A stretch of 42,086 nt of DNA from a virus. The notes beneath the pieces were generated by a model that worked only from the letters and a program-made list of their open reading frames with translations, made no database searches and was not told where the DNA came from. A program made the translations under genes and the position numbers. Location: IMG/VR virus record IMGVR_UViG_3300010396_000028, positions 1 to 42,086 of that record, one strand, 5' to 3'. The stretch's first letter is position 1, and each line of letters starts with the position of its first letter. Of this stretch, positions 636-42,086 are shown piece after piece.

Positions 636-902
636 TTATCGACCTATGATAATGGCTGTGCCGAACGCGTTGCCGAGTGGGTCTTTAAATGCCAACGTGG
701 CTACGTTTGTGGCGTAGGTGGGAGCTGCGGTATAAACCAGACCGCCATCCAGAATGACATGGAACACGTCAGTAAGACGGTCGGCGGTAATGGTGCCGGA
801 AGTGTCACCAGATGCGGCGGTGAACTTAACAATTTGAATCTTTACAGGTCCGATAGAAAAAGAACGCGGCTCCGATACGGAGTCAGTAGTAGCAAATGCC
901 AT
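636..902 (-). CDS. Hypothetical late (probably structural) protein (88 aa)
   Basis: ATG preceded by AGAGGA. First gene downstream of late-motif copy 1. Thr/Ala/Gly-rich, beta-type composition. Confidence 0.55.
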   Translation of the reverse strand: MAFATTDSVSEPRSFSIGPVKIQIVKFTAASGDTSGTITADRLTDVFHVILDGGLVYTAAPTYATNVATLAFKDPLGNAFGTAIIIGR

Positions 903-1007
903 ATTTTCCTCTTGTGGTATTTCCCGTCACTTGAGCGGGGAGCAGATGCCTGGCCTAGGTCCAGGCTGTACTCATTAGGGCTTTCAACATGAATGATCCC
1001 TCTATAT

Positions 1008-1024
1008 AAGGGGGAAAAGTTCTA
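1008..1024 (-). promoter_or_regulatory. Late-gene motif copy 1 (minus-strand TAGAACTTTTCCCCCTT followed by ATATA)
   Basis: 17/17 identical to the copies at 2980-2996 and 12893-12909. All three are oriented with the minus-strand late genes. Confidence 0.5.
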
Positions 1025-1031
1025 CAACTAG

Positions 1032-2495
1032 TTAGCCGCCGAAGGGATCGCTGCTCTTTCGCCCCTTCTTAAGTTCTTGTAATTCATTGTAAAGCATACG
1101 CTCTGAGGAGCCATGTTTGAGGTGGGCAATGGGGTCAAGCTTTTTAGTGACAGGCTCGGGGCATGTCATAATCATATATCTCAAACTGTCCATCAAATGG
1201 TCATTTACCTTCACAGGCTCTTCCCGCTCATTGAATTTACCCTGCAAACCTGCGGGGCGCTCGGCCCAGCGATATTGGGTTATTTCATCAAGCAAGTTCA
1301 CACAGGTGTCGAAAACATACAGGCGCGGCTTCCCGCGAGCATCAGGCTTTAGATAGGCCTTCACACGCTCTATGCCGGTCTGTACGCTCTTCTGAGCCTC
1401 CAGCATGGGAAAACCGCTGGGGAGGTGGCGCAGGTAAATATCCCAGTTGTTCAGGCCGTTGCGCACTTGTTTAGCTGCGGGGTCCATGCGCATCTGCTCC
1501 ACTTTGCGCCCTCTTAGCTTGGAGTAGGCACTAGGAAGGTGCTGCATATTCACCACCTTACCTGTTCGGCATATTTCCTCTATGAGCCACTCTTTCTGGT
1601 AAAACTCATCCCACACGTAGACATCGCCCTCTGGGCTTATCGCGGCGTATATCCAAGCAGCGGCGTTGCGGTAGCCATCGTCAGCGCCGATGCGTATGGT
1701 CCAGTCGTCAGGAATGCGGAAGGGTTTAATGACGTGTACAGCACGGTTGAATTCACTGTAGATTTGCCCCTCAAAGCTATCGTCTGAGCCCTCAATTTCG
1801 CGCCTTATGCGGTCTTCGCTCCACGCGGCCACGAGAGTGTCAATGTAGCCGTCGGGCAGGTGAATGTTCTCGGTGGAGGGGGCACGTATGTTGAGAAACA
1901 GGCGCCTTACCTCGGGGGAGGCAATGTGGTCTTTCTTAACAAACCAGCGCCAGGTCCAGTCATGGCCTCCGGGGTTCATTGTCACGAGGCCCTTGCGCCA
2001 GAAGCGGCCCCGTAGGCGTCCCTGGAGCAGCATGAAGGCGGCTTCGGACACCTGGTTGGCTTCGTCAATGTAAAACGCATTTAAATTCAAGGAGCGGAGC
2101 TTGTCTGGCTCCTCTAGGCCACGAAAGAGAATGGTGCTTACACCGCCGCCCACACAGTGCACCTTCACCACCATGTCAGCCACTCGCACTTCTTTTATCA
2201 GCTCAGGCGGGCACACCTCCATGAACGTCTTGTACGTGGTGTCTTTCAGCTCAGGCATGTATTGGCGGGCGACGAGGTAGTCGCCAGGGCGCAAGACAGC
2301 CATGTGAAGCATGGTGGTGCAGCCGATGAGCGTCTTGCCGCTACCGATGCCGCCCACATAGCGCACAAACTTGGCATAGGCTCGGCTTTCAGCCTCCGAC
2401 AGAGCTGCATCTAAGAATTGCTTCTGTTTGGGCAGAGGAGTGCGGGAGCCGTCTTTGGCAACAGGGAAACACTGGTTGAGGTCTATTGTGGGCAC
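1032..2495 (-). CDS. terL: Terminase large subunit
   Basis: 487 aa. Walker A GGIGSGKT, Walker B-like FYIDEANQ, C-terminal nuclease-domain motif DHLMDSLRY typical of large terminases. Confidence 0.92.
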   Translation of the reverse strand: MPTIDLNQCFPVAKDGSRTPLPKQKQFLDAALSEAESRAYAKFVRYVGGIGSGKTLIGCTTMLHMAVLRPGDYLVARQYMPELKDTTYKTFMEVCPPELIKEVRVADMVVKVHCVGGGVSTILFRGLEEPDKLRSLNLNAFYIDEANQVSEAAFMLLQGRLRGRFWRKGLVTMNPGGHDWTWRWFVKKDHIASPEVRRLFLNIRAPSTENIHLPDGYIDTLVAAWSEDRIRREIEGSDDSFEGQIYSEFNRAVHVIKPFRIPDDWTIRIGADDGYRNAAAWIYAAISPEGDVYVWDEFYQKEWLIEEICRTGKVVNMQHLPSAYSKLRGRKVEQMRMDPAAKQVRNGLNNWDIYLRHLPSGFPMLEAQKSVQTGIERVKAYLKPDARGKPRLYVFDTCVNLLDEITQYRWAERPAGLQGKFNEREEPVKVNDHLMDSLRYMIMTCPEPVTKKLDPIAHLKHGSSERMLYNELQELKKGRKSSDPFGG

Positions 2496-2592
2496 AGCGG
2501 TCCTTTAAAAAGAAAAAAGCTGCTGGGTGAGGGCTACCCTACAGAGATAGGGAGATCGTCGATTGTAGAGGCTGTGGTGGGCTTTAAATAAC

Positions 2593-2620
2593 GTTTGACA
2601 AGCGAATGACACCGTCAAAC
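2593..2620. repeat. Inverted repeat GTTTGAC-N14-GTCAAAC
   Basis: Perfect 7-bp arms read directly from the sequence. Lies about 100 nt upstream of the terL start. Confidence 0.6.
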
Positions 2621-2625
2621 ATTTA

Positions 2626-2909
2626 CCTGGCTGCGGCTTAGCCTGCGCCGGTGGCGGAGTCTTAGGCTGAGACACAGTAATATATTTAATAAATACCTGG
2701 CTAAGACTCAGCCTGCGTCTTAGATATGTATTTTAATCTGTGCCAGGCTGTGGCTTAGCCTGCGCCTCTGTGTTATCTCTTTCGCATCCCCGCTCTCGCG
2801 CCTGGCGCATTAGAGAGCGGAGCCAACTCCTACTTCGCTTTCCTTCGGGCTCAGTAGGAGCGCGTTTTTGTGGCTGTGTTGGTGCTTTCTCTGAGGCGCG
2901 GGCTAAGCC
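2626..2909. repeat. Iteron cluster: three direct copies and one inverted copy of (CCWGGCT..)GGCTTAGCCTGCGCC, separated by AT-rich spacers
   Basis: R1 2626-2649 and R3 2743-2766 are 22/24 identical. R2 2696-2719 shares the flanks CCTGGCT...GCCTGCG. The inverted copy GGCGCGGGCTAAGCC is at 2895-2909. AT-rich stretches lie at about 2668-2694 and 2722-2738. Confidence 0.7.
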
Positions 2910-2979
2910 TTGTCGGTGGTGTATTTTTAGCTGTCTGTGCCACCGCCTCGCGCGCAGCCGTAAGAGATACCTTCATATA

Positions 2980-2996
2980 AAGGGGGAAAAGTTCTA
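2980..2996 (-). promoter_or_regulatory. Late-gene motif copy 2 (about 485 nt upstream of terL)
   Basis: Exact 17-mer AAGGGGGAAAAGTTCTA on the plus strand. The minus strand reads TGTAGAACTTTTCCCCCTTTATATG. Confidence 0.5.
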
Positions 2997-3406
2997 CAAA
3001 GTTGCAAGTGGCTGTAACTGTTCTGGATAACAATTGTTAAGAATAGAACCTATGTGTTAACATCTCTTAACATTCTACAAAGCTTGTTTATGGGCAAGGG
3101 CGGGAAAATTGTGCGCGCCACCATATAACTCTACCTCGCTCACCACTTTTGCCCCACCCCCTAGGCCCCTTGCAAGGTCCATGCCATGATACAGTGGCAG
3201 GGTAGAGACAGGTGGCTTGGCATAGATCATTATTCGTGCCATGCATGATGCTATGCGGGGAGGGTATGTTGGCATGGGCATGTTGAGAATCATTCTCACC
3301 TCGTCTCACACAACACTACCTGTCGCATATTGCAACACTATCAAAAGCTTTGCTCCTATATAGAGCGCGCCACCGCGACGACAGTGGTGTCTAGGTCGGC
3401 GCTTTT

Positions 3407-3505
3407 GTACAAAAGATCGGCAATGAGTACATATGCCTTGCTTTACAACGTATTGCAGCGATTTTACATGAAACTTTCCTAAACTCGTACAAAAGATCGG
3501 CGATG
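3407..3505 (+). repeat. Two copies of the 19-mer GTACAAAAGATCGGCRATG, 80 bp apart
   Basis: Copies at 3407-3425 and 3487-3505 differ at 1 position. The first is embedded in the 14-nt palindrome CTTTTGTACAAAAG. Confidence 0.6.
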
Positions 3506-3547
3506 GGTTCACCGGTCTTGCTAATAGTTTCGCTGCTTTACACTTGC

Positions 3548-3575
3548 TTGACATCGGCATTACATCTGCTATACT
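3548..3575 (+). promoter_or_regulatory. Early sigma70-type promoter (TTGACA-N16-TATACT)
   Basis: Consensus -35 at 3548-3553 and near-consensus -10 at 3570-3575, facing the first plus-strand genes. A hairpin GCCGAG-TACTT-CTCGGC (3586-3602) follows. Confidence 0.6.
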
Positions 3576-3616
3576 TATTATAACAGCCGAGTACTTCTCG
3601 GCAGGAGGATAGCAAG

Positions 3617-3736
3617 GTGATCTACATCGTAATGACAAAGTGGGACATAAAGCTTACTGCCCTAACTGATCTGTCTGAGGCCCAGCGCGCTGCTAGAGCG
3701 TGTGGTGGCTATATCGTTTTTGTTAAAAACCGCTAA
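3617..3736 (+). CDS. Possible small early ORF (39 aa from GTG 3617, or 34 aa from ATG 3632)
   Basis: AGGAGG lies 7 nt upstream of the GTG. This is the first ORF after the early promoter. It is below the 60-aa cutoff of the track. Confidence 0.3.
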   Translation: MIYIVMTKWDIKLTALTDLSEAQRAARACGGYIVFVKNR

Positions 3737-3766
3737 AAACCGCTAATGAACGCTAATGGAGGTTGT

Positions 3767-4210
3767 ATGAAAAACATTCAACGTACTTCGGATTACGATA
3801 CCAACCTGGATCTTGCTTTTGGAAACCTTGTAATTAATCTCTGCGCTCACGACACCAGCCCTTGTGGGTTGCCTGCTTATATTGAAGTGCAGCTTGGTAA
3901 AGCGCCTAAAGACAAAGGCGCTACCGTGCTTGACCTTGGCAACTACATCTATCGTCGTTTTGGCCTTCGTTACCAAATGACTCCTGAATATTGTGGACGC
4001 GGCAAGAGCACCACGCTTCGTTGGTTTATGTCGTGGGACGATATCAAGCCCATACGCGCCAACATTTTCAAAGCTTGTATGCCTGAGGCTACTGAGCGTT
4101 TGGTTAATTTAGAACACTTTCTACCCGTAACCTTTCGCACATTGATTATTCAAAACCCCGAACGTGGAGTGCGTGCCCCAAGCAATTCGACGCAGGAGAC
4201 ATTGCGATGA
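3767..4210 (+). CDS. Hypothetical early protein
   Basis: ATG 3767 is preceded by GGAGG; the track ORF starts at 3746. Its end overlaps the next ORF start (ATGA). Confidence 0.6.
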   Translation: MKNIQRTSDYDTNLDLAFGNLVINLCAHDTSPCGLPAYIEVQLGKAPKDKGATVLDLGNYIYRRFGLRYQMTPEYCGRGKSTTLRWFMSWDDIKPIRANIFKACMPEATERLVNLEHFLPVTFRTLIIQNPERGVRAPSNSTQETLR

Positions 4211-6263: not shown

Positions 6264-6485
6264 CTATTTCACTGTAGCCAGCAGCTCCGATGGGGAGAGG
6301 CCATAGACCTCGCATATTTTGTAAAGTGTGCTCATGTTGAAGTTCTTTCCCGTTTCAAGCTTTTGCAGGTGTCGCCAGGATGGATAACCGTGCTGTTCTG
6401 TTTCTTCTAGTGTCCATCCTTTGTTTTGCCTTACTTGTCGTAGCCGCGATCCAATTTGTTTGATGAAAGATTTTTCACAATTCAT
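6264..6485 (-). CDS. XRE/Cro-CI family HTH transcriptional regulator (candidate repressor)
   Basis: 73 aa. LRQVRQNKGWTLEETEQ...LQKLETGKNFNMSTLYKICEVYGLSPSELL matches the XRE HTH pattern. Encoded opposite to the flanking early genes. Confidence 0.8.
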   Translation of the reverse strand: MNCEKSFIKQIGSRLRQVRQNKGWTLEETEQHGYPSWRHLQKLETGKNFNMSTLYKICEVYGLSPSELLATVK

Positions 6486-7023: not shown

Positions 7024-7073
7024 AGGGGCAATTTAAACGAAGTGGGAGATAAGCACAAGTGTTTTATTTAAGC

Positions 7074-7101
7074 TTGACATTGTAAAGCAACCTGCTATAC
7101 T
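7074..7101 (+). promoter_or_regulatory. Sigma70-type promoter (TTGACA-N16-TATACT) inside the 22-nt box AAGCTTGACATTGTAAAGCAAC
   Basis: Hexamers read directly. The same box, with one change, recurs at 7656-7677. Confidence 0.5.
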
Positions 7102-7198
7102 GGATAATAGGAAGAGGGGCAATATGGAACGTGCATACAAGCTACTACGAATCTTCGTCAGGCTTATTGTTCGTGTACGTCGCTAGAAAGGAAACGCT

Positions 7199-8679: not shown

Positions 8680-9638
8680 AAATACTCTTTTTCGATCCAG
8701 TAGCTCAAAAGCCGTACACCGCAAAAAGCCTCACCACGCAGCCTATGGGGGCAAGTGAGGCAAGCCTAATCCGTGTGGCTCGGGAGCTGGCTAAAGAACA
8801 CTCTGTGGCTGTGTTTCAGCTTGTGGATGCTCACCGTAAGCATCTCGTCATTGAAGGTGTACAGCATATAAACGAGAACACGCCTTTCTCTCCTGATGTG
8901 GTGGTGCACATGCGATCGGCGGAATACTTAGAGATGTACCCCGAGGCAAAGAACATTGTGTGGCTTCAAGATGCAGCGGGTGATTGGCTTAAGAAGGGCT
9001 TGTGGCACTTGGCGGACAATGTCGTGTGTCTCACGAATTGGCATATACAAAACATTCAAACCGCGCTGAATGACACTAAATATCCACCTATACGTCGCAT
9101 TTATAACCCAGTAGATCTTGACGGAGTCTTTGCCGACTTAAAAGTGCCAGACAGGTTGGGCTTCTTTTCCTCACCGCACAAGGGCCTCCAACAAGTTGTA
9201 GAGCTTTTCAATGAATTGAAAAAAAGTCGCTCTGAGCTTGAATTGGTTGTCGGCAACCCTGGATATATGCCCGACGTTATTCCGGAAGGTGTGCGCTTCC
9301 TCGGTAGTCTTCCACACCCGCTCGCTATGAAAGAATTGAGCCGGTGCCAAGCGCTTTTCTATCCGCAAACTGTGTTCCCTGAAACCATGGGAGTGATTAT
9401 GGCGGAAGCCAACGCTCTCGGGGTGCCGGTGTTGGCACATGATATGGGCGCGGCAGTAGAAGTGCTTATTACTGAAACCAATAAACACCACAATTTCGTT
9501 ATTGATTGCACCAACCACAAGCACATCAAAAACGCAGTAGAGTATATGTTGGAGCCCTGTCCAACCGCACCAACACTCGATGCTCGGTTTGAGCTGAGCG
9601 CTGTACTTGAACAATGGCGACAGCTTTTGGAGGGATGA
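8676..9638 (+). CDS. GT-B fold glycosyltransferase (GT4-like)
   Basis: 320 aa. The C-terminal half carries FPETMGVIMAEANALGVPVLAHDMGA, the E-x7-E-type sugar-nucleotide binding signature of GT1/GT4 enzymes. Confidence 0.8.
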   Translation: MKILFFDPVAQKPYTAKSLTTQPMGASEASLIRVARELAKEHSVAVFQLVDAHRKHLVIEGVQHINENTPFSPDVVVHMRSAEYLEMYPEAKNIVWLQDAAGDWLKKGLWHLADNVVCLTNWHIQNIQTALNDTKYPPIRRIYNPVDLDGVFADLKVPDRLGFFSSPHKGLQQVVELFNELKKSRSELELVVGNPGYMPDVIPEGVRFLGSLPHPLAMKELSRCQALFYPQTVFPETMGVIMAEANALGVPVLAHDMGAAVEVLITETNKHHNFVIDCTNHKHIKNAVEYMLEPCPTAPTLDARFELSAVLEQWRQLLEG

Positions 9639-11740: not shown

Positions 11741-12019
11741 ATGAAATATATTGTGGCTTTTGTTTTGTTGTCGTTTGTGTCAAGCCCTGCGCGGGCTATT
11801 AGAAAGTCAGATCTATGCGGTATGGGAGTGCCCGAGCCGGGCCAAGACTGCGAGCAAGAGAAAATCGACAAGGAAGCAGAAGCGCTAAGCAAAGCAATGA
11901 AGAAGCAGCGGATGTTAGACCGCTCCGACACTACCTCAGACCAGCTCACCATGTGCCCAGATGGAACCTATGTGAAAGGCGACCATTGCACTTTAGCCCC
12001 AGACGGCACTTACCGCTAA
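11741..12019 (+). CDS. Secreted small Cys-containing protein (moron candidate)
   Basis: Signal peptide MKYIVAFVLLSFVSSPARA. Repeated C..PDGTY motif. AAGGAG RBS. Immediately downstream of int. Confidence 0.6.
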   Translation: MKYIVAFVLLSFVSSPARAIRKSDLCGMGVPEPGQDCEQEKIDKEAEALSKAMKKQRMLDRSDTTSDQLTMCPDGTYVKGDHCTLAPDGTYR

Positions 12020-12417
12020 CGAACAGTGAGCGTGAATGGCTTCCCGGCCTGCATGGTCATGAAGTCGTCAAAGGCCGCAGCAGAAGAGACAATGCATTTA
12101 TCGATCATGTCAACCGATTTGCCGAGCAATACACAGCCATCGCTGTCTTGGTTGTAATTGCCTTTGTGAAACAGTATTCCGCTATGGCCAGGCACCCCCG
12201 TTATTTCATAGAGCTGTTGAGGGCCGCCGTGGTCAAGCTGGTGAGTGCCGAGTATGCAGGTATAGGTGCCTGGTGGTATTTTTGGAGCATACGTACCATC
12301 GGGCTGTAGAAATGCGTGTTCCAAAGTCACCGCATGCTGTTTCATACTGTCATCTATAAGCGACGAAATAATTCCCCACTCATTGTGGCTTTCGCGTGTG
12401 AGAGTGAGACGATTCAT
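12016..12417 (-). CDS. DUF5675-like protein with a YkuD (L,D-transpeptidase)-like His...Gly-Cys motif
   Basis: PPGTYTC...VPGHSGILFHKGNYNQDSDGCVLLG matches the recalled DUF5675 signature (GxYxC...VPGRxGIxxHxGN...GCIxxG). Confidence 0.55.
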   Translation of the reverse strand: MNRLTLTRESHNEWGIISSLIDDSMKQHAVTLEHAFLQPDGTYAPKIPPGTYTCILGTHQLDHGGPQQLYEITGVPGHSGILFHKGNYNQDSDGCVLLGKSVDMIDKCIVSSAAAFDDFMTMQAGKPFTLTVR

Positions 12418-12887
12418 TTTTTCTGTTCCTTCACAACAATGGCTGGTTTCGGCTCGGGTGTTTGCCCAGCCAGTACAATTTGAATCGACCCTTTGCCCTC
12501 TTCGTCTTTGTTGGCGGTTTCTAGCCCGAGAGAACGAAGGACGGTTATGGCAGCATTGAGATTGTACTTGTCGAGCTGCTTTTCTATGGCTGTTACAGCC
12601 TTTTTTGCTAGCCGAGCTAGGTCAGCTCGGGTTTTGGCTTTGGCATTATCAATAGCGTCGTCACCAATTTCAGCAACAATGCGTTTATACAGCTCATCCC
12701 GCATTATCTTGCCAGCATAATAATTAGATATATTTAATGACTTGGCTATGGCGTACTTGGTGGCCCCGGAAGCACCTAAGGCCGCAGCGCGCTTTATCGT
12801 GGCCTCGGACATTACTTCGTCTGGCCCTTCGGGTTGTACTTCGTCAATTTCTTCAATGTTTTCAATGTCAGTGTTTTCTGTGCCCAT
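12414..12887 (-). CDS. HTH DNA-binding protein, possible terminase small subunit
   Basis: 157 aa. Acidic N-terminus, HTH-like ATKYAIAKSLNISNYYAGKIM, then a helical oligomerisation-like region. Directly downstream of late-motif copy 3. The start may be the internal Met. Confidence 0.45.
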   Translation of the reverse strand: MGTENTDIENIEEIDEVQPEGPDEVMSEATIKRAAALGASGATKYAIAKSLNISNYYAGKIMRDELYKRIVAEIGDDAIDNAKAKTRADLARLAKKAVTAIEKQLDKYNLNAAITVLRSLGLETANKDEEGKGSIQIVLAGQTPEPKPAIVVKEQKK

Positions 12888-12892
12888 ATACT

Positions 12893-12909
12893 AAGGGGGA
12901 AAAGTTCTA
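12893..12909 (-). promoter_or_regulatory. Late-gene motif copy 3
   Basis: Exact 17-mer. The minus strand reads TAGAACTTTTCCCCCTTAGTATATG, ending in the annotated ATG of ORF 12414..12887. Confidence 0.5.
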
Positions 12910-12915
12910 TTGTGC

Positions 12916-12944
12916 TTTACATCTGCTGTACGTTGTATTACTAT
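12916..12944 (+). promoter_or_regulatory. Sigma70-type promoter (TTTACA-N17-TACTAT) for the 12962 operon
   Basis: Hexamers read directly. Divergent from late-motif copy 3. Confidence 0.5.
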
Positions 12945-12961
12945 CAGTAGTAGAGGTGCAT

Positions 12962-13273
12962 ATGAAAAACAAAATGATTGGCAAGAAAGTCATTGTACGG
13001 GCAAATGTGGCCGGTGTTCATGCTGGAATTATCGAAAGTATCGATACCGCTACGCAAACCGTTACGCTCGCAAAGGCATATAGACTGTGGGGCTTTTACA
13101 CCCGCGACAATTCCGGATCTATAAGTGATTTAGCAGCTAATGGTTTGAAGCCTAATGGCGGCCATTCTATCGGTGCCGAATTAAAGTCTGTAATCATCGT
13201 CAATCCGGCAGGCCTGGAACTGGCTGAGATGACCGATGCTGCATATAAATCAGTTCAAGACTGGAAAAACTAA
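12962..13273 (+). CDS. Hypothetical protein (103 aa)
   Basis: ATG 12962 is preceded by GAGGTG; the track ORF starts upstream at 12737 inside the divergent gene. Confidence 0.6.
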   Translation: MKNKMIGKKVIVRANVAGVHAGIIESIDTATQTVTLAKAYRLWGFYTRDNSGSISDLAANGLKPNGGHSIGAELKSVIIVNPAGLELAEMTDAAYKSVQDWKN

Positions 13274-21336: not shown

Positions 21337-22035
21337 GTGCCCAAAATCATCTGCCCGTTCCATGAAGACACGAACCCATCGTGCGAAATCTACGAAGACG
21401 GATACCACTGCTTTGTCTGCGACGCCAGCGGGCCTCTTTCCGCACTCGGGCCAGAGTTTCGAGACATTAAGGCCCCGCCCAAGCTTCCCCCGACGGATTT
21501 ACCAAGCGAGCTTGCGAGGATTAAACTACTGCCTTTTGCACCTGTTCGCGGTTTGCAGCTTCCTGTTGATACTAATAGTTACTACGTGCTTTGGCCTGGC
21601 GACACTTACTTTAAGCGCCGCCTGTTTTTTCCAGGAGAAGGCCCGAAATATCTCTGCCCCAGAGGACACGCGAAGCCGCCGTTTTGGGCGCACCATGATA
21701 GCAAAAACAGTTCTCTTGCAGTTGTTGAAGGAGAACTTAATGCCCTGAGCTTAGAAAGAGTGCTTTCCGGCTGGGACATACTAAGCCCCGGCGGGGTGGG
21801 GGATTTCAACGAGAAGCTGCTGCCGATGCTCAGAGGATACAAACGGTTTGTACTGATATTGGACAAAGATAAGCCCGGATTGGACGCCGGGAAGAGAATG
21901 AAGGAGATGCTTGTCAGGATGACGCCGCATGTGGATTTGTTTCTCGTTGCGCCCGATCTGAATGACCAGCTTGTAAATGGCACCCTCGAAAAAGAAGTCA
22001 AAAGCTGGCATCTGGACATGCCCACACGGGTGTAA
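21337..22035 (+). CDS. DNA primase (CHC2 zinc finger plus TOPRIM)
   Basis: CPFHEDTNPSCEIYEDGYHCFVCDASG; TOPRIM VVEGELNALS and LILDKDKPG. GTG start after GAAGAGGTGG. Confidence 0.85.
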   Translation: MPKIICPFHEDTNPSCEIYEDGYHCFVCDASGPLSALGPEFRDIKAPPKLPPTDLPSELARIKLLPFAPVRGLQLPVDTNSYYVLWPGDTYFKRRLFFPGEGPKYLCPRGHAKPPFWAHHDSKNSSLAVVEGELNALSLERVLSGWDILSPGGVGDFNEKLLPMLRGYKRFVLILDKDKPGLDAGKRMKEMLVRMTPHVDLFLVAPDLNDQLVNGTLEKEVKSWHLDMPTRV

Positions 22036-22459
22036 CCAAACCGCTTGGTTTAATAAGAAGGAGCGCAGGAACGGCAAACTTGTATCCCGCCACCGTGGCT
22101 GCCCTCATTTAGAAAAACTACTGCCCGGCTCTCATCGCGGCGATAGCAGCGTTATTTATGATCCGAATCCAGAGCGTTTTTTATTGGCGGATGTTTCGGA
22201 CAACAAATCTTTAACAGACGAAGAGGAGGTTTGTGCTGAACCAATTTCAGACTATGACCGCATGCTCGGCTCTCTTCGCAAGGCGGGCCTTTCAGAGAAG
22301 CTGTCTAAAGTGGTGGCTTTGCGAATTGTGGGGGGAATGAGTTGGGAAGAAATTGCCTTGGAATGTGGGTGCACATCAAAGGGCAGCGTGTATGTGGAGT
22401 TTGCGCGCGCAATTAAATTTCTAAAAAAGGTGGGATATGGCCAAAGTAACAAAACCTAA
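21977..22459 (+). CDS. Sigma-70 region 4-like (LuxR/ECF-type HTH) regulator with an N-terminal Cys/His cluster
   Basis: LSEKLSKVVALRIVGGMSWEEIALECGCTSKGSVYVEFARAIKFLKK fits the sigma70_r4 pattern. N-terminal CPHGC...GCPH. The only canonical start overlaps the primase gene by 59 nt. Confidence 0.55.
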   Translation: MAPSKKKSKAGIWTCPHGCNQTAWFNKKERRNGKLVSRHRGCPHLEKLLPGSHRGDSSVIYDPNPERFLLADVSDNKSLTDEEEVCAEPISDYDRMLGSLRKAGLSEKLSKVVALRIVGGMSWEEIALECGCTSKGSVYVEFARAIKFLKKVGYGQSNKT

Positions 22460-36948: not shown

Positions 36949-38163
36949 TTAGGAAACGCCAGCAGGGGTTGCTAGACCAGTAATCATCCCGAAGCCGTTA
37001 CGCTTGCCTGTTCCCAGGTTCACGTAATGTCTCCAGTAGGATTGATAGAGGTCGAAGTTGGCCATGCGGAGAAACTTATCGCTTCCATCATGGGTTCCGA
37101 CTTCGAGGGCAGCCAGCTCAAACTTCTCAAGCAGCTTCTTGGCGAAGGCATAGACAGTGTTGTTCTGGCAGTCTACGTCAAGCCACAGCTCAATGCCGTT
37201 GAACTCAAGCTTTTGAAAGCCGGCGTCCATTTTCTGTTCAGCATAGCGCTTCTGAGGCACCACGATATCGAGGTACTTCCTGCGCTGCTGGCGGTGCATG
37301 ATGAGGGTGTCAACGTTCTCGCCAGAGAGGATGGCTACATCATCGATAATGCGTTGAAGAAGGTCAGACGTGAGGTTTGCACCGCTTGCGTCGATTCTTC
37401 GTCCGCGCCACAGATAGTTGGTAGCTGCCGAGATGTTTTCAAACGTGGTGAGGTTGGTACCGTCGTCGCAGATACCTTGTAGCCCCATCATTTCTTTTCC
37501 GTCAGCAGGAGCGCTGTTGAGGATGTTTTGCTTCACGAGCGATGCACTGGAGGTCAAAGCCGCACCTACCGACGTGGAGAAACCAACAATGTTGTTTACC
37601 TTGTCAACATAGGATACGCGGAGAGCCGTAGCCACGAGCGAGCTGGACAGGGTGACATCGAGCACCATATTCTGACGAATATATTGCGTGCTGGTAACAG
37701 TGAAGGAGGTGAGGTTAGAAGCTACGTTCCCAGCGGGAGCGCAGATAAAACCGTTTCCGAGGCCATAGAACTGGCGGTTCTCGTCTTTGATAAGACGGTC
37801 ACGAGCGCGTTCCATAGCATCCATTACAACGTTTACAAAGGATTCGTCATCACCTTCGGCAGCTTTGCTTACCAAGCCAGAGAACTGGATTGGAGCTACC
37901 ATGATCTTGGGAGTAACTTTCCATTGTTGATAGTCTTCGCTATCGATTGTGCGGAATTGCTCTTCTTCGTTGATAGCGCCTACAGATTCGTTACCGTAGT
38001 CGTTAACGTCTCCGAAGAAGCCTTCACCGCCCGGTGAATAGTTCTTGCTGCTCTTGACGATTTCATTCATCGCCCGAGCTTCCAAGTTCTGGAGTCGCGA
38101 AACGTTCTTGTCGTAGACCCGTTTCAACGCACCAGCAACTGAGCTTAAATTTGTATCAGCCAT
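36949..38163 (-). CDS. Major capsid protein (HK97-fold type)
   Basis: 404 aa, directly downstream of the scaffold gene. Size, position and sequence character fit a major capsid protein. Followed by a terminator-like hairpin. Confidence 0.75.
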   Translation of the reverse strand: MADTNLSSVAGALKRVYDKNVSRLQNLEARAMNEIVKSSKNYSPGGEGFFGDVNDYGNESVGAINEEEQFRTIDSEDYQQWKVTPKIMVAPIQFSGLVSKAAEGDDESFVNVVMDAMERARDRLIKDENRQFYGLGNGFICAPAGNVASNLTSFTVTSTQYIRQNMVLDVTLSSSLVATALRVSYVDKVNNIVGFSTSVGAALTSSASLVKQNILNSAPADGKEMMGLQGICDDGTNLTTFENISAATNYLWRGRRIDASGANLTSDLLQRIIDDVAILSGENVDTLIMHRQQRRKYLDIVVPQKRYAEQKMDAGFQKLEFNGIELWLDVDCQNNTVYAFAKKLLEKFELAALEVGTHDGSDKFLRMANFDLYQSYWRHYVNLGTGKRNGFGMITGLATPAGVS

Positions 38164-39086: not shown

Positions 39087-39875
39087 TTACGTCCGAAATT
39101 TGTTTATGAGAGCCGCTGTGGGGCTCACTATGGCTGGCTTCTTCTGCTCGCGTATCCTGCGGGACACTTCGTCCAGCATAGGCTTCACAATGCCTGCATA
39201 TGCATCCACGCTTTTCTTGGCGTAGGACATCGCGTAATTGTTCATCTCCAGCAGGCACACGCTCTTGTAGTGGCGACACACCTTGCTGTAATCGACATAA
39301 AACTGGTAGCCGAGGTCAATGACCTTGTGGCAGAACGACAAATCCTCGCCGGCAGTCATGTTGCGCGTCTCGCTGTCAAACTCGAAAGCGAAGTAGGGCT
39401 TTTCAAGCTCTTCAAGAAGCTTGCGCTTGATAAATAAGCAACCTGTGGCCAAACCATCGATGTAGTCGGTTCCTTTGGCAGGAACATCGGCTGCCGCAAG
39501 GCCGCCGTTCTTTCCTTTGCCTTTGTACGCAGTGAACTGTATTTGTGGCTGGTCGTGGCCGGGTGGGGTAATGAATATAGGGTAAGGGGCGCCAGCCACT
39601 ATCCACTTTTCGTGGTCAAGCACGAGATCGAAAATGTCAGGAGGAGGCACCACGTCGCTGTCCAGGAAAAACAAAATGTCTGCTTCGCTCTTCAAGAAAT
39701 TTTCAACGTGCATGTTTCTTGCGAAATCATGAAACACACGGCGCACGCACATCTCAGGCCAAATAAATTCGATCTTGTCAGCGTACAGCTTCTCAGCATC
39801 GCGCCAGAACCACACCTGGGCATCGGCGATGGTGCCCATGGTAGGAACAGCTACATAAACTTTTATTTTATTCAT
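39087..39875 (-). CDS. GT-A fold glycosyltransferase (GT2-like)
   Basis: 262 aa. VYVAVPTMG first strand, DxD motif FFLDSDVV, and GEDLSFC. ATGA overlap with the portal stop. Confidence 0.75.
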   Translation of the reverse strand: MNKIKVYVAVPTMGTIADAQVWFWRDAEKLYADKIEFIWPEMCVRRVFHDFARNMHVENFLKSEADILFFLDSDVVPPPDIFDLVLDHEKWIVAGAPYPIFITPPGHDQPQIQFTAYKGKGKNGGLAAADVPAKGTDYIDGLATGCLFIKRKLLEELEKPYFAFEFDSETRNMTAGEDLSFCHKVIDLGYQFYVDYSKVCRHYKSVCLLEMNNYAMSYAKKSVDAYAGIVKPMLDEVSRRIREQKKPAIVSPTAALINKFRT

Positions 39876-42085
39876 GCAGCACCTGGACCGCGCATGGCAC
39901 CGCTGCCCTTAATTTGACCTGGCACGAGCGCATCGCCAAAAATAGCATCCTTCAAGTTCTGCCCAACACCATTGCCGGCTTTGTGATGCTTATTCACAGG
40001 AGCATTGGGGCCGGGAGGAGGCGGGGCAGGCTGCTGGCCGGCCATCGCGGCTTGCATGGCCTGCTGCTGCTGTTGCATGGCCTGCATTTGCTCGTGCTGC
40101 TGAATGTGAGCGAACACGGCCTGCTGCACAGGAAGAGGCAATGCCATGAAGCGCGGCTCTTTCGTCATGTTGCCATGTACGGTAATATGTACACCGTGAT
40201 TGTCGGTGTCGAGCACGACAGGTTTGGTGTCGGGCGATTGATTCACCTCGCGCAACAAATCGTTTTCCCACTCAGCACGCCGCGTGTCTGGTCCGACATC
40301 GCTGTCATATCCGCTAATACCGAGGTCTTGTAAGAACTGAATGCGGTTGGCTGGCTGGTCTAGCTGGAGAGCGCCAGTGTTGGCCACTTCTAGCTTTAGT
40401 GCCTGTTCGGCTGCTTGTAGCTTAGGCACGTTGCTGCCTGCCTCAATGATGACATTGCAATTGTCATAGAGGTCTTCGCCGATAAAGTTTTCAATTTCCT
40501 GCTCGGACAGCTCTTGGTTTTTCATCATGAGCATGCGGATAAAGTCTGGGCGGGGCTCTTTATATTTCGTAGCGATGAGACGCAGCTGCTTCTTCTGGCT
40601 GCACTCCACAAACCTCTTCCAACGGTCCAGTACTGGAAAAAGTTTCCCCGTGCCTACTTCGTAAAGCATGCTCAGCGCCGAGGCGGCTGTGACTCCCGGA
40701 GGTCTATCGCCCTTTAAAATATCCATAGCGCCCGTGACGCTTTTGAAATCCTCTAAAGTCTTCTCGCGCTCTATGAAAACGCTTTCGTGCACGCCTGTGG
40801 GCTGTATAGTTTCGGGCTTAGCGCCGCCAGCACCGTCAGCACGATAAAACTGTTCATGGCCGGGGCGTCCCGTCCAGCTGCCGGGCTCTACACCGATACC
40901 GAGCGGAATGAGACGCTGTGGAATGGCCATCGTCTTGCGAGTGAGGATGACAGTGGCATCAATGCTATTTAGCTTCTTCTGAATTTCAGCGCCGTCGTCT
41001 AGCGGCCCTTTGGCCCAGAAACGACCAGGCACTATTTCCCAGCGGCACTCAGAATAAGGGTGCCAATCGCCGAGGTCGGGGCCTTCGCAGGGGCTATCGC
41101 CCACGTAAAGCGGTATACCATTGGCCACAACAACCATGCGCCCTTTGGGGTGCTTCTGTGTGGGGCGTTCGTAGTATTCTTTTACCACTGCGGTGTTGGC
41201 AAGGCTCGGGTCGGCAGACGTGCCACCCGTATCGGGCGCGAAGCCGTTTTTAACGCCGCTAGAGGTCTTGAGCTGGAAGAATCTGCGCAGGCTGTTGTTG
41301 AGGGGGGTTTCAGCCTTCACCTCGTCAGCGCGGCCAGTGTAGCCTACAGAATTGGGGTCATTCTGTGGTTGCGCGTAAACAGTTTGAATCCAATCAAGCT
41401 GCTGTATGCTGTATTCCATCACCCAGCGCGTCTTCTGTAGAGATACAGCAAGAGGGTCAAGGGCAATGCGGTAGGGTTCAATAATATCAGAGTTGACATC
41501 GCCGAGCGGTAAGACATCCACCACAGGCTGTCCAAACTCATCAAGCACAGGCACTTCTTGTTGCCCTGTCACAGCGCCCGTTTGAGGGTCAAAGGTGGGC
41601 TGAATTTGCGTGCGAGGCACCTTTACCTGGCTCACATAAGACTTGTCCCAGTAGTCTTTCTTGAACACGTTGCCGTAGGTAACGAGAACAGATGCTGCGT
41701 ATTCGAAGTTTTCTTCTTCGGCCAGGCGCTCATAATTCGTTTCACTAACAAGCGTGGAAAGCTTGGCGGCGGTCTTGTCCCGGTACATCATCGTATTGGG
41801 TCGAACAGTGACGCGTGGCTTGTTCTTGAGCAGGTAGCCCTTGAGCGTCTGATAGGCGTCGAACATAATGTTCGTGACGGGGCGTGGAATGTATTCGTTC
41901 TCTTTAGAAACGCGCAACGTCTTCCACATGCCGCCTGATGTGTTGTTCTCTTCCCACACGAGCCATTGCTGCCCATCCAGGAACATTTGATTGCGTTCCC
42001 AGTTACGACCAAGCTGTGTTTTCACCACAGAATCGTTGCGGTAGAACTTTTCAATATAGGACGCAAGCTGATCCGGATCTTCCAC
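39872..42085 (-). CDS. Portal protein (C-terminal 697 codons from 41963; 41964-42085 duplicates bases 1-122; true start at 173 across the junction)
   Basis: Large ORF between terL and the scaffold and capsid genes. The collapsed full length is 754 aa. Gln/Pro-rich C-terminal tail. Confidence 0.75.
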   Translation of the reverse strand: MEDPDQLASYIEKFYRNDSVVKTQLGRNWERNQMFLDGQQWLVWEENNTSGGMWKTLRVSKENEYIPRPVTNIMFDAYQTLKGYLLKNKPRVTVRPNTMMYRDKTAAKLSTLVSETNYERLAEEENFEYAASVLVTYGNVFKKDYWDKSYVSQVKVPRTQIQPTFDPQTGAVTGQQEVPVLDEFGQPVVDVLPLGDVNSDIIEPYRIALDPLAVSLQKTRWVMEYSIQQLDWIQTVYAQPQNDPNSVGYTGRADEVKAETPLNNSLRRFFQLKTSSGVKNGFAPDTGGTSADPSLANTAVVKEYYERPTQKHPKGRMVVVANGIPLYVGDSPCEGPDLGDWHPYSECRWEIVPGRFWAKGPLDDGAEIQKKLNSIDATVILTRKTMAIPQRLIPLGIGVEPGSWTGRPGHEQFYRADGAGGAKPETIQPTGVHESVFIEREKTLEDFKSVTGAMDILKGDRPPGVTAASALSMLYEVGTGKLFPVLDRWKRFVECSQKKQLRLIATKYKEPRPDFIRMLMMKNQELSEQEIENFIGEDLYDNCNVIIEAGSNVPKLQAAEQALKLEVANTGALQLDQPANRIQFLQDLGISGYDSDVGPDTRRAEWENDLLREVNQSPDTKPVVLDTDNHGVHITVHGNMTKEPRFMALPLPVQQAVFAHIQQHEQMQAMQQQQQAMQAAMAGQQPAPPPPGPNAPVNKHHKAGNGVGQNLKDAIFGDALVPGQIKGSGAMRGPGAA

Positions 42086-42086
42086 C
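41964..42086. repeat. Terminal duplicate of bases 1..123
   Basis: Exact identity checked base by base. Confidence 0.95.

Follow-up and report, generated by a model that had tools for sequence, protein, structure and literature searches.

In a 42,086-nucleotide (nt) stretch of viral DNA, the IMG/VR record IMGVR_UViG_3300010396_000028 (hereafter the window, i.e. the whole stretch analysed), the 17-mer TAGAACTTTTCCCCCTT, here called the box, occurs in exactly three copies, all on the minus strand. We consider it fairly probable that the boxes are promoters of a packaging and morphogenesis ('late') regulon and are read via a phage-encoded determinant, the likeliest being the product of open reading frame (ORF) 21977-22459, which would redirect the host RNA polymerase. 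Phage-specific late promoters are a classic theme, and a phage-encoded reader belongs to what is known of it; unusual here would be a contiguous box whose -10 slot is non-AT, a geometry like that of T7 promoters with no phage polymerase found to go with it, a candidate reader with sigma region 4 only, and a cassette-like swap of specificity. The three sites are given below with their predicted start positions.

998..1024 (17-mer 1008-1024), minus strand: copy 1 with its AT-rich stretch and G-run TAGAACTTTTCCCCCTTATATAGAGGG; predicted start 1002/1001; faces ORF 636-902, the portal gene and the virion operon.
2970..2996 (17-mer 2980-2996), minus strand: copy 2 with TATATGAAGG; predicted start 2974/2973; 485 nt before terL.
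12883..12909 (17-mer 12893-12909), minus strand: copy 3 with AGTATATGGG; predicted start 12887/12886, the ATG of ORF 12414-12887.

The three boxes are real and non-random. No further copy was found in the window even at three mismatches, where 0.08 matches at ≤3 mismatches were expected from 100 dinucleotide shuffles and 0/100 shuffles reached three, confirming the 17/17 identity at three minus-strand sites reported in an earlier note on this DNA. Searching the window for the sub-motifs TTTTCCCCC, GAACTTTTCC and CCCCCTT..TAT returned the same three sites and no degenerate copies. Non-coding DNA makes up ~7.5% of the genome, and all three boxes lie in it (chance ~4e-4); all three also have the orientation of the gene downstream and stand ahead of packaging or virion genes, in line with the earlier claim that they always face minus-strand, putatively late genes. 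Copy 1 begins 7 nt past the terL stop codon and 105 nt ahead of ORF 636-902, and copy 3 lies 5 nt ahead of the ATG of ORF 12414-12887.

Read 5′ to 3′ on the minus strand, the sites are ttgTAGAACTTTTCCCCCTTatatagaggga (copy 1), ttgTAGAACTTTTCCCCCTTtatatgaaggt (copy 2) and caaTAGAACTTTTCCCCCTTagtatatgggc (copy 3). Upstream of the box only TTG is common to copies 1 and 2, and downstream an AT-rich stretch and then a G-run follow in all three; the ungapped alignment shows T at position 17, AT-rich bases at 18-22, G, G and A at 23, and GG at 26-27. With the similarity confined to the box and these two elements, selection acts on the box itself and not on a longer duplicated segment. The TATA(T/G) element that was said to follow the box is present, but at a spacing of 0-2 nt and not 1-3 nt. 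Elsewhere in IMG/VR the exact 17-mer had one match (L001), which probably arose by chance because it is without the TATA element and came up in none of the protein-homology searches; in metagenomes it had 80 single matches, 0 of them with the TATA/G-run context or with protein or DNA similarity to the window.

Searches of IMG/VR with TerL, portal and PolA yielded ~25 contigs in which the synteny of terL, an 88-amino-acid (aa) ORF (636-902 in the window) and portal is kept. The closest complete relative, IMGVR_UViG_3300025921_000036 (R1), is syntenic over the whole genome, its neighbouring proteins being 36-77% identical, and carries three copies of a box of its own, CnGCGACAAnnGGGGCnT, which is unrelated to the window box and occupies the same three positions.

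R1, after terL: CCGCGACAAACGGGGCGTATGTAGGAGGG
R1, ~305 nt upstream of terL: CCGCGACAAGTGGGGCATTAGTAGGGGGG
R1, directly before the homologue of ORF 12414-12887: CAGCGACAAATGGGGCATTGTTAGAGGCA

Comparing the post-terL site of the window with that of R1, the flanks are ~80% identical on both sides and 4/19 bases of the box match; block by block and ungapped, GAAC/TTTT/CCCCC/TT-ATATAG of the window stands against CGAC/AAAC/GGGGC/GT-ATGTAG of R1. All six sites of the two genomes (6/6) have T at position 17 and G at position 26, and 5/6 have G23. Genome-specific boxes were also detected at equivalent places in more distant relatives: three in L029 (one ~1 kb ahead of terL, one past terL and one within the virion operon), two in L022 (~790 nt upstream of terL and after terL), two in L009 (one ahead of its homologue of ORF 12414-12887), and two each in L028, L023 and L019. 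The positions are thus kept while the sequence is wholly replaced, which fits a promoter set co-evolving with a phage-encoded recognition factor. A motif search in related phages for the same positional bias, as the earlier note had proposed, finds the positions conserved and each genome with a box of its own, and its candidate phage-specific promoter is backed by the own box of R1 at the same three positions and by the genome-specific boxes of the others.

The boxes therefore have the marks of a phage-specific, positionally conserved promoter set, with a co-divergence of box and factor that is only suggestive. From the alignment at the post-terL site, box sets seem to have been exchanged as cassettes between sister genomes in otherwise conserved DNA, and what reads them is probably a fast-evolving phage-encoded factor, not the standard promoter-recognition protein of the host. 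Altogether, reading the boxes as putative promoters is well supported by comparative evidence. In R2 (the L013 genome) no further box copies were found, and at the box position (6390-6411) a perfect palindrome, TAACAATAT-A-AATATATTGTTA, lies upstream of an extended -10 element; this suggests a dimeric regulator there, unlike the asymmetric box of the window.

The plus-strand genes are preceded by promoters of a more familiar kind.

3548..3575, plus strand: near-consensus early promoter TTGACA-N16-TGnTATACT, with a twin at 7074-7101.
12916..12944, plus strand: divergent early sigma70-type promoter TTTACA-N17-TACTAT, for the gene starting at 12962.

The former and its twin are near-identical over 3540-3580 and 7066-7106 (plus strand; GCTTGACAT-N-CTGCTATACT), and such near-consensus promoters before plus-strand genes indicate that the host uses ordinary sigma70 promoters. 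The boxes are unlike them, as had been noted earlier: the consensus scan does not report the three sites, TAnnnT occurs in copy 3 only (1/6 of the window and R1 sites), and none of these sites has a -35 element at 16-18 nt, while at the orthologous site L008, L012 and L013/L015 do carry a sigma70 extended -10. Neither do the boxes have the bipartite form of ECF (extracytoplasmic function) and sigma70-family promoters, since their spacing is wrong, GAAC lying 10-13 nt and not 16-17 nt from TATA; no conserved motif that could be an ECF-type -10 was found 16-17 nt past GAAC in the three copies, and R1 has CGAC in place of GAAC. The proposed analogy with the GGAACTT -35 element of ECF-type sigma factors is therefore not supported, all the more as the protein that had been linked to it is without region 2. 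A check by eye of all six sites against sigma54 (GG-N10-GC), sigma32 and ECF spacings gave none that fits.

The start site was predicted by means of the relatives. Textbook -10 elements occur directly ahead of the post-terL leader in L008 (TGCTACAAT), L012 (TGCTATTAT), L013/L015 (TGTTACTAT) and L007 (TATAAT); in all of these, counting seven bases on from the hexamer leads to a G that belongs to, or directly follows, a 'TAG' ahead of the G-run, and this G precedes the G-run or Shine-Dalgarno sequence (SD) and then the 5′ hairpin of the conserved leader. If this register is also applied to the internal promoters of L029 and L023, their leaders measure just 2-4 nt to a conserved ATG. This canonical register would put +1 of the window sites at position 23-24, from which the start positions listed above are predicted; the 17-mer would then span about -23 to -7, the -10 slot would be filled by CCCCCT or CCCCTT (GGGGCG or GGGCGT in R1), and the TATA stretch would directly precede +1. 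The TATA element is hence probably not a -10 hexamer, sitting instead between the -10 slot and the start site; as a sigma70 -10 it fits badly, because five of the six sites do not have TAnnnT and a start set by it would cut off conserved SDs. With +1 at the ATG, the mRNA from copy 3 would be leaderless or nearly so; L009 has the same TATATGG arrangement as copy 3, and R1 has GAGG-N7-ATG, beginning at the equivalent of position 23.

The candidate reader of the boxes is encoded on the plus strand.

21977..22459, plus strand: candidate specificity factor of 160 aa, with an N-terminal Cys/His segment (WxCxxGC...CPHLE), an acidic linker and a C-terminal sigma region-4 helix-turn-helix (HTH).

It is the only recognisable transcription protein in the genome by Pfam and PHROGs scans, and neither an RNA polymerase gene nor a sigma factor with region 2 was found among the ORFs scanned with the two collections. 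Pfam Sigma70_r4_2 matched at aa 104-149, and the AlphaFold model made with the family alignment has a C-domain of sigma region-4 fold (predicted local distance difference test, pLDDT, 97-98), for which Foldseek gave as nearest structures region 4 of ECF sigma factors, namely SigD4, sigmaE region 4 on -35 DNA, AlgU and SigH; for the N-domain Foldseek gave no match. Region 4 only, and no region 2, was recognised in it. NCBIfam ECF models align by their C-terminal parts only and none reaches the cut-off, and the family members match Sigma70_r4 models and the C-terminal parts of ECF models, never region 2. Thus, the region-4 likeness claimed for this protein was confirmed at the level of the fold, but without region 2 the protein is no sigma factor, of the ECF type or otherwise.

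A full HMMER search among 1.84 billion proteins delimited the family to 19 representative clusters, all of 117-157 aa, and a word-indexed protein search with the region-4 protein returned only itself; small proteins with region 4 only are common among predicted viral structures. In R1, R2, L029, L022, L043, L044, L139 and L137, a family member is encoded at the corresponding locus, immediately ahead of the exonuclease gene; the last of these (L137, the P0002 locus) has no overlap with any portal-bearing contig. The candidate factors of window and R1 are 31% identical versus 36-60% for their neighbours, and their recognition helices differ, while L029 and L022 have similar boxes and similar recognition helices; judged from these sequences, the box-helix pattern agrees with co-variation. 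The first 59 nt of ORF 21977-22459 (21977-22035) lie, in another frame, over the 3′ end of the primase gene (21337-22035); the true start of the ORF may be internal, or its translation may be coupled. As the reader of the boxes this protein is the best available guess, though somewhat less likely than not.

Put together, the favoured scheme would run as follows. The boxes would serve as promoters for terL, for the virion operon from ORF 636-902 through the tail genes, and for the island 12887-12016, and the primary sigma factor of the host alone would be unable to recognise them, so that reading would take a phage-encoded specificity determinant co-evolved with the box. Most likely, the host RNA polymerase would be redirected by the Cys/His and sigma-region-4 protein of ORF 21977-22459, which would bind the 5′ part of the box (AGAACTT) in the manner of sigma region 4 on DNA and hold the polymerase on a core promoter having neither a -35 nor a consensus -10; transcription would start at site position 23-24, the TATA stretch being melted just upstream of +1. 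A bolder version, which we regard as unlikely, holds that a minimal non-sigma initiation factor (a zinc-ribbon-like Cys/His part, acidic linker and region-4 HTH, reminiscent of archaeal TFB) would steer the host polymerase to contiguous T7-like promoters in which a C5 or G4C block, specific to the phage, takes the place of the -10, and that sister phages have swapped the whole code at all late-regulon promoters at once.

Several points weigh against this scheme. We infer the promoter function, the start site and the 'late' timing of the boxes, the timing from gene functions only. The link between protein and box is circumstantial, the co-variation being drawn from five genomes and confounded by their relatedness. 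A sigma region-4 domain would be expected near -35, and AGAACTT falls near -20 in the preferred register. R2 has a family member, yet its post-terL promoter looks like an ordinary extended -10 sigma70 promoter with the upstream palindrome, and the family is therefore not tied to non-sigma70 promoters. To our knowledge, no bacterial holoenzyme melts CCCCTT or GGGCGT as a '-10', and a second, unrecognised factor resembling sigma region 2 may be needed, none having been found in the family scans. At copy 3, a conserved internal Met (MSEAT) of ORF 12414-12887, present in the window and R1, could be the true start, which would weaken the leaderless argument; of the two accounts offered before, a leaderless mRNA fits the predicted +1 at the ATG, and the conserved Met leaves room for an internal start.

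The alternative that survives best, though quite unlikely, takes the 17-mer as the operator of a phage repressor or regulator (keeping, e.g., late genes off in a temperate or early phase), with the adjacent TATA as the promoter proper for host holoenzyme. It would suit the integrase-like gene in the genome, a box that abuts or overlaps the presumed core promoter, the R2 palindrome of dimeric-regulator type at the equivalent position by a good extended -10, and the place of copy 3 beside a divergent early promoter. Without the box, however, the core is too poor for sigma70 (no -35, no TGn, TAnnnT at 1/3 sites), so an activating or specificity function would be needed all the same; moreover, the box is asymmetric and always co-oriented with transcription, and in R1 the whole -10 slot belongs to the swapped block.

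Promoters of an unrecognised phage RNA polymerase, i.e. elements of ~23-27 bp with a specificity block at -12 to -8, TATA at -5 to -1 and a G start, are a very improbable reading. The geometry and the block swap (CCCCC to GGGGC) do resemble the T7/T3/SP6 promoter families, relatives with ..ACTATATAG.. and ..TAGGGAG fit the pattern, and four late-region proteins (786, 442, 311 and 307 aa) have no family match; against this, Pfam and PHROGs gave no RNA polymerase match for any ORF, no unassigned early ORF is longer than 184 aa, the large unassigned proteins lie inside the virion module (that of 786 aa being sized and placed like a tail-tube or nozzle protein), and relatives have an ordinary extended -10 at the same site.

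That a host alternative sigma factor reads the boxes, e.g. one with a C-rich -10 like that of sigma32, seems hardly probable either. The sigma32 -10 region is CCCCATNT, which CCCCCTTAT of the box resembles, and copy 2 has CTTGCAA 15 nt upstream (cf. the sigma32 -35 CTTGAAA), but this -35 is missing at copies 1 and 3, the 17/17 identity across the spacer would stay unexplained, R1 has GGGGC for CCCCC at all three orthologous sites, and neither the isolate comparisons nor the portal profile search identified a host.

It is just as doubtful that the boxes are DNA sites outside transcription (packaging, replication or site-specific recombination), bound, e.g., by the island HTH protein or the integrase-like protein. 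Both proteins are encoded nearby, and copy 2 adjoins a repeat-rich, possibly packaging-site- (pac-) or origin-like region; set against that are three dispersed, co-oriented copies at the 5′ ends of three transcription units, with AT-rich stretch, G-run and conserved leader, a position upstream of genes that is kept in many relatives, and a box without dyad or core-type symmetry, and recombination between such direct repeats would cost the phage terL or the early region.

Finally, a role of the box as RNA (a 5′-untranslated-region element, a processing site, or a hairpin of CCCCC with the downstream GGG) in transcripts from further upstream is very improbable as well: copies 1 and 2 could form a small CCCUU-AUAUA-GAGGG hairpin, copy 2 is preceded by a possible extended -10 (TGTAGAAT, ~3075-3082), and terL transcripts must read into copy 1, but copy 3 can form only a weak hairpin and R1 (G-rich on both sides) none at all, for which lack of conservation the hairpin was rejected, there is no Rfam match, and the copy 3 gap has only 74 nt, mostly taken by the divergent promoter.

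Among known systems, the late promoters of phiEco32 (gp36; tAATGTAtA) and phage 7-11 (gp47; GTAAtg-N16-aCTA) come close to the favoured scheme: read by phage sigma factors, they lie at the same map positions with a different consensus, each with its diverged phage factor, as shown experimentally (PMC8948821). The window likewise has a short phage-specific consensus before late genes, positions kept while the sequence diverged, and early genes on host sigma70. It differs in that those factors are bona fide sigma factors with region 2, whereas the window candidate, known here from its sequence, has region 4 only, and in that the window box is a contiguous 17-mer including the -10 slot. By analogy, the closest functional counterparts of the ORF 21977-22459 product would be late activators of the RinA type, found with ArpU and Ltr in Gram-positive temperate phages (PMC3152322, PMC3753634), which are small (~140-160 aa), have a region-4-like C-terminal half and switch on the terminase/morphogenesis promoter; RinA itself, with a C-terminal half resembling sigma region 4, activates the late operon promoter upstream of terS and the terminase genes (PMC3152322). 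The shared feature would be position, the window boxes being upstream of terL and the virion operon; the window differs by the Cys/His N-domain, three dispersed promoters instead of one, a host that appears to be of the sigma70-consensus type, and a site that abuts or overlaps the -10 slot. An NCBIfam scan of 19 family members found no RinA/ArpU model (TIGR01636/TIGR01637) for the window protein or among the top 25 families; those listed were all sigma-factor models.

In T4, the MotA box stands in for the -35 at a shorter distance from the -10 than is usual for that element, the sigma70 -10 being retained 11-13 bp from the box. These middle promoters combine the MotA box with sigma appropriation by AsiA (PMC2988021). 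As would be the case in the window, a phage-specific box stands in for the -35 and a phage protein takes the role of sigma region 4, but the good sigma70 -10 (TAnnnT) kept in T4 is absent from the window boxes, and no early protein had a PHROG match to MotA or AsiA. The window boxes would, with the predicted +1, resemble the promoters of T7/T3/SP6, which have a contiguous element (~23 bp) of rigid spacing, a 5-bp block differing between sisters, TATA before +1 and a G-rich start, and the ungapped alignment of the six sites is consistent with such an element; those promoters differ by their single-subunit RNA polymerase gene, none of which was found in the window genome. Lambda Q, a zinc-containing regulator whose binding element lies between -35 and -10, depends on both a strong sigma70 promoter and a pause element close to it. 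The window resembles it in having an element inside the putative late promoter and a long structured leader before terminase genes, but has no strong sigma70 promoter, pause element or Q homology, and three promoters instead of one.

For this uncultured phage lineage without a near isolate, comparing genomes is enough to read the recognition code. If the region-4-only protein is the reader, a function would be defined for a class of small, mostly unannotated phage proteins, it would become clear how bacterial polymerase can be guided to promoters that have neither a -35 nor a consensus -10, and the orthogonal box/factor pairs of sister phages would be parts for synthetic gene circuits. The predicted starts, the leaderless mRNA and the factor dependence are testable with synthetic DNA and no phage culture.

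The genes around the boxes are arranged as follows.

39872-42085, minus strand: portal, running across the window ends.
1032-2495, minus strand: terL, the gene downstream of box copy 2.
636-902, minus strand: the 88-aa ORF, conserved, the first gene past copy 1, sitting between terL and portal in ~20 relatives.
36949-38163, minus strand: capsid.
3746 to 24572, plus strand: early/replication module with exonuclease, Erf-like protein, PolA, helicase, amidase, primase and second exonuclease.

The window carries an exact 123-bp repeat at its ends (bases 1-123 are repeated at 41964-42086), from which a genome length of 41,963 bp follows, with the portal ORF spanning the junction; the assembly is circular or terminally redundant, and complete. 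Between terL and the portal side of the minus strand there are three small ORFs, and further virion genes on this strand, including that of a tail-fibre protein, extend down to 24565; the virion operon facing copy 1 measures 17.5 kb. The early module is broken by the two-gene minus-strand island 12887-12016. Rfam and tRNA scans of the window found no RNA genes. Comparison with isolated phages by megablast of 12 kb gave no match, the TerL and capsid relatives among isolates are all <30% identical, and no literature on this phage lineage was found; the portal profile matched among reference genomes one 44-kb contig, binned in a Pseudobdellovibrionaceae metagenome-assembled genome, from which the host was not assigned.

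Copies 1 and 2 are each followed by a predicted leader.

903..1001, minus strand: leader past copy 1, with 5′ hairpin, 11-codon mini-ORF (955-990), GC hairpin (948-967), CAAG-loop hairpin (923-940) and the SD of ORF 636-902.
2496..2979, minus strand: leader from copy 2 to terL, with direct and inverted GGCTTAGCCTGCGCC-type repeats; predicted to be a highly structured RNA.

The mini-ORF encodes MLKALMSTAWT, and the GC hairpin is located at its stop. We compared the leader between terL and the 88-aa ORF in L007, L008, L011-L013, L015, L018-L020, L022-L024 and L027-L029; a purine-rich G-run/SD, 5′ hairpin, mini-ORF (6-12 codons, with SD), GC hairpins and the SD of the 88-aa ORF are kept in all relatives, the architecture being conserved across them and the sequence between window and R1. 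The hairpin with a (Y)CAAG loop forms in 13/13 relatives despite different stems (CCCG/CGGG, CGCCU/AGGCG, CGCUU/AAGCG, AGGUC/GACCU, UAGAC/GUCUA and others), and a second CAAG stands directly ahead of the SD of the 88-aa ORF. This leader, which has no Rfam match, looks like a cis-regulatory RNA or a protein-binding operator. As no terminator was found between terL and copy 1, this copy has the look of an internal promoter that boosts transcription of the virion genes.

In the leader past copy 2, three direct repeats of ~24-36 nt (2615-2650, 2685-2720 and 2732-2767; core CCTGGCTG.GGCTTAGCCTGCGCC) have inverted partners (e.g. 2752-2768 with 2893-2909, 94% complementary), and as RNA the region 2496-2979 folds far better than its shuffles (z = -4.6); it could be a pac or TerS-binding DNA region, an origin or a structured leader. 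The consensus scan gave no sigma70-like promoter between copy 2 and terL. A box set back from terL by 0.3-1 kb is present in R1, L029 and L022 too, which makes the long leader, regarded earlier as an oddity at ~485 nt with iterons, a conserved feature.

The island has the following extent.

12016..12887, minus strand: two-gene island, putatively driven by copy 3, encoding a 157-aa HTH protein (ORF 12414-12887) and a DUF5675 protein.

The HTH protein has an acidic N-terminal tail and is conserved in R1, L009 and L042; its 'TerS-like' identity was dropped, because no PDB or Pfam match was found beyond weak HTH matches, leaving the label without a family or structure to rest on. The non-coding gap holding copy 3 (12888-12961) is largely taken by the divergent promoter, and the box ends 6 nt from the -35 hexamer of that promoter, whose gene at 12962 encodes a DUF6948 protein. 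At this distance, early transcription of that gene could be hindered by, or coupled to, a complex bound at the box, and the gap may be an early/late switch point.

Some further features were observed upstream of terL. In the large non-coding region 2496-3745, 36-nt direct repeats occur at 3407-3442 and 3487-3522, near the promoter 3548-3575. Window 3071-3119 (minus strand) is the sole strongly conserved stretch of the aligned non-coding DNA upstream of terL that is shared with R1; it reads GGCGCGCACAATTTTCCCGCCCTTGCCCATAAACAAGCTTTGTAGAATG in the window and CGCCTCGCACAACTTTTCCGCCCTCAGGCATAAACAAACCTTGTT in R1, lies ~80-110 nt upstream of box copy 2 in both genomes, and has counterparts in L002 (~4150-4200) and L003 (~9540-9590). 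The window version has TTGTAGAAT at its end, a sequence that looks like an extended -10 and has TTGTAGAA in common with copies 1 and 2. A near-match to the box with four mismatches upstream of terL in L002/L003 was tried as the counterpart of copy 2 and rejected, aligning to this element instead. In L025, the TerL homologue (1344-3626) has 760 aa versus ~480 aa elsewhere and the distance from terL to the 88-aa ORF is 1.46 kb; this terL likely carries an insertion, intein or homing-endonuclease-like.

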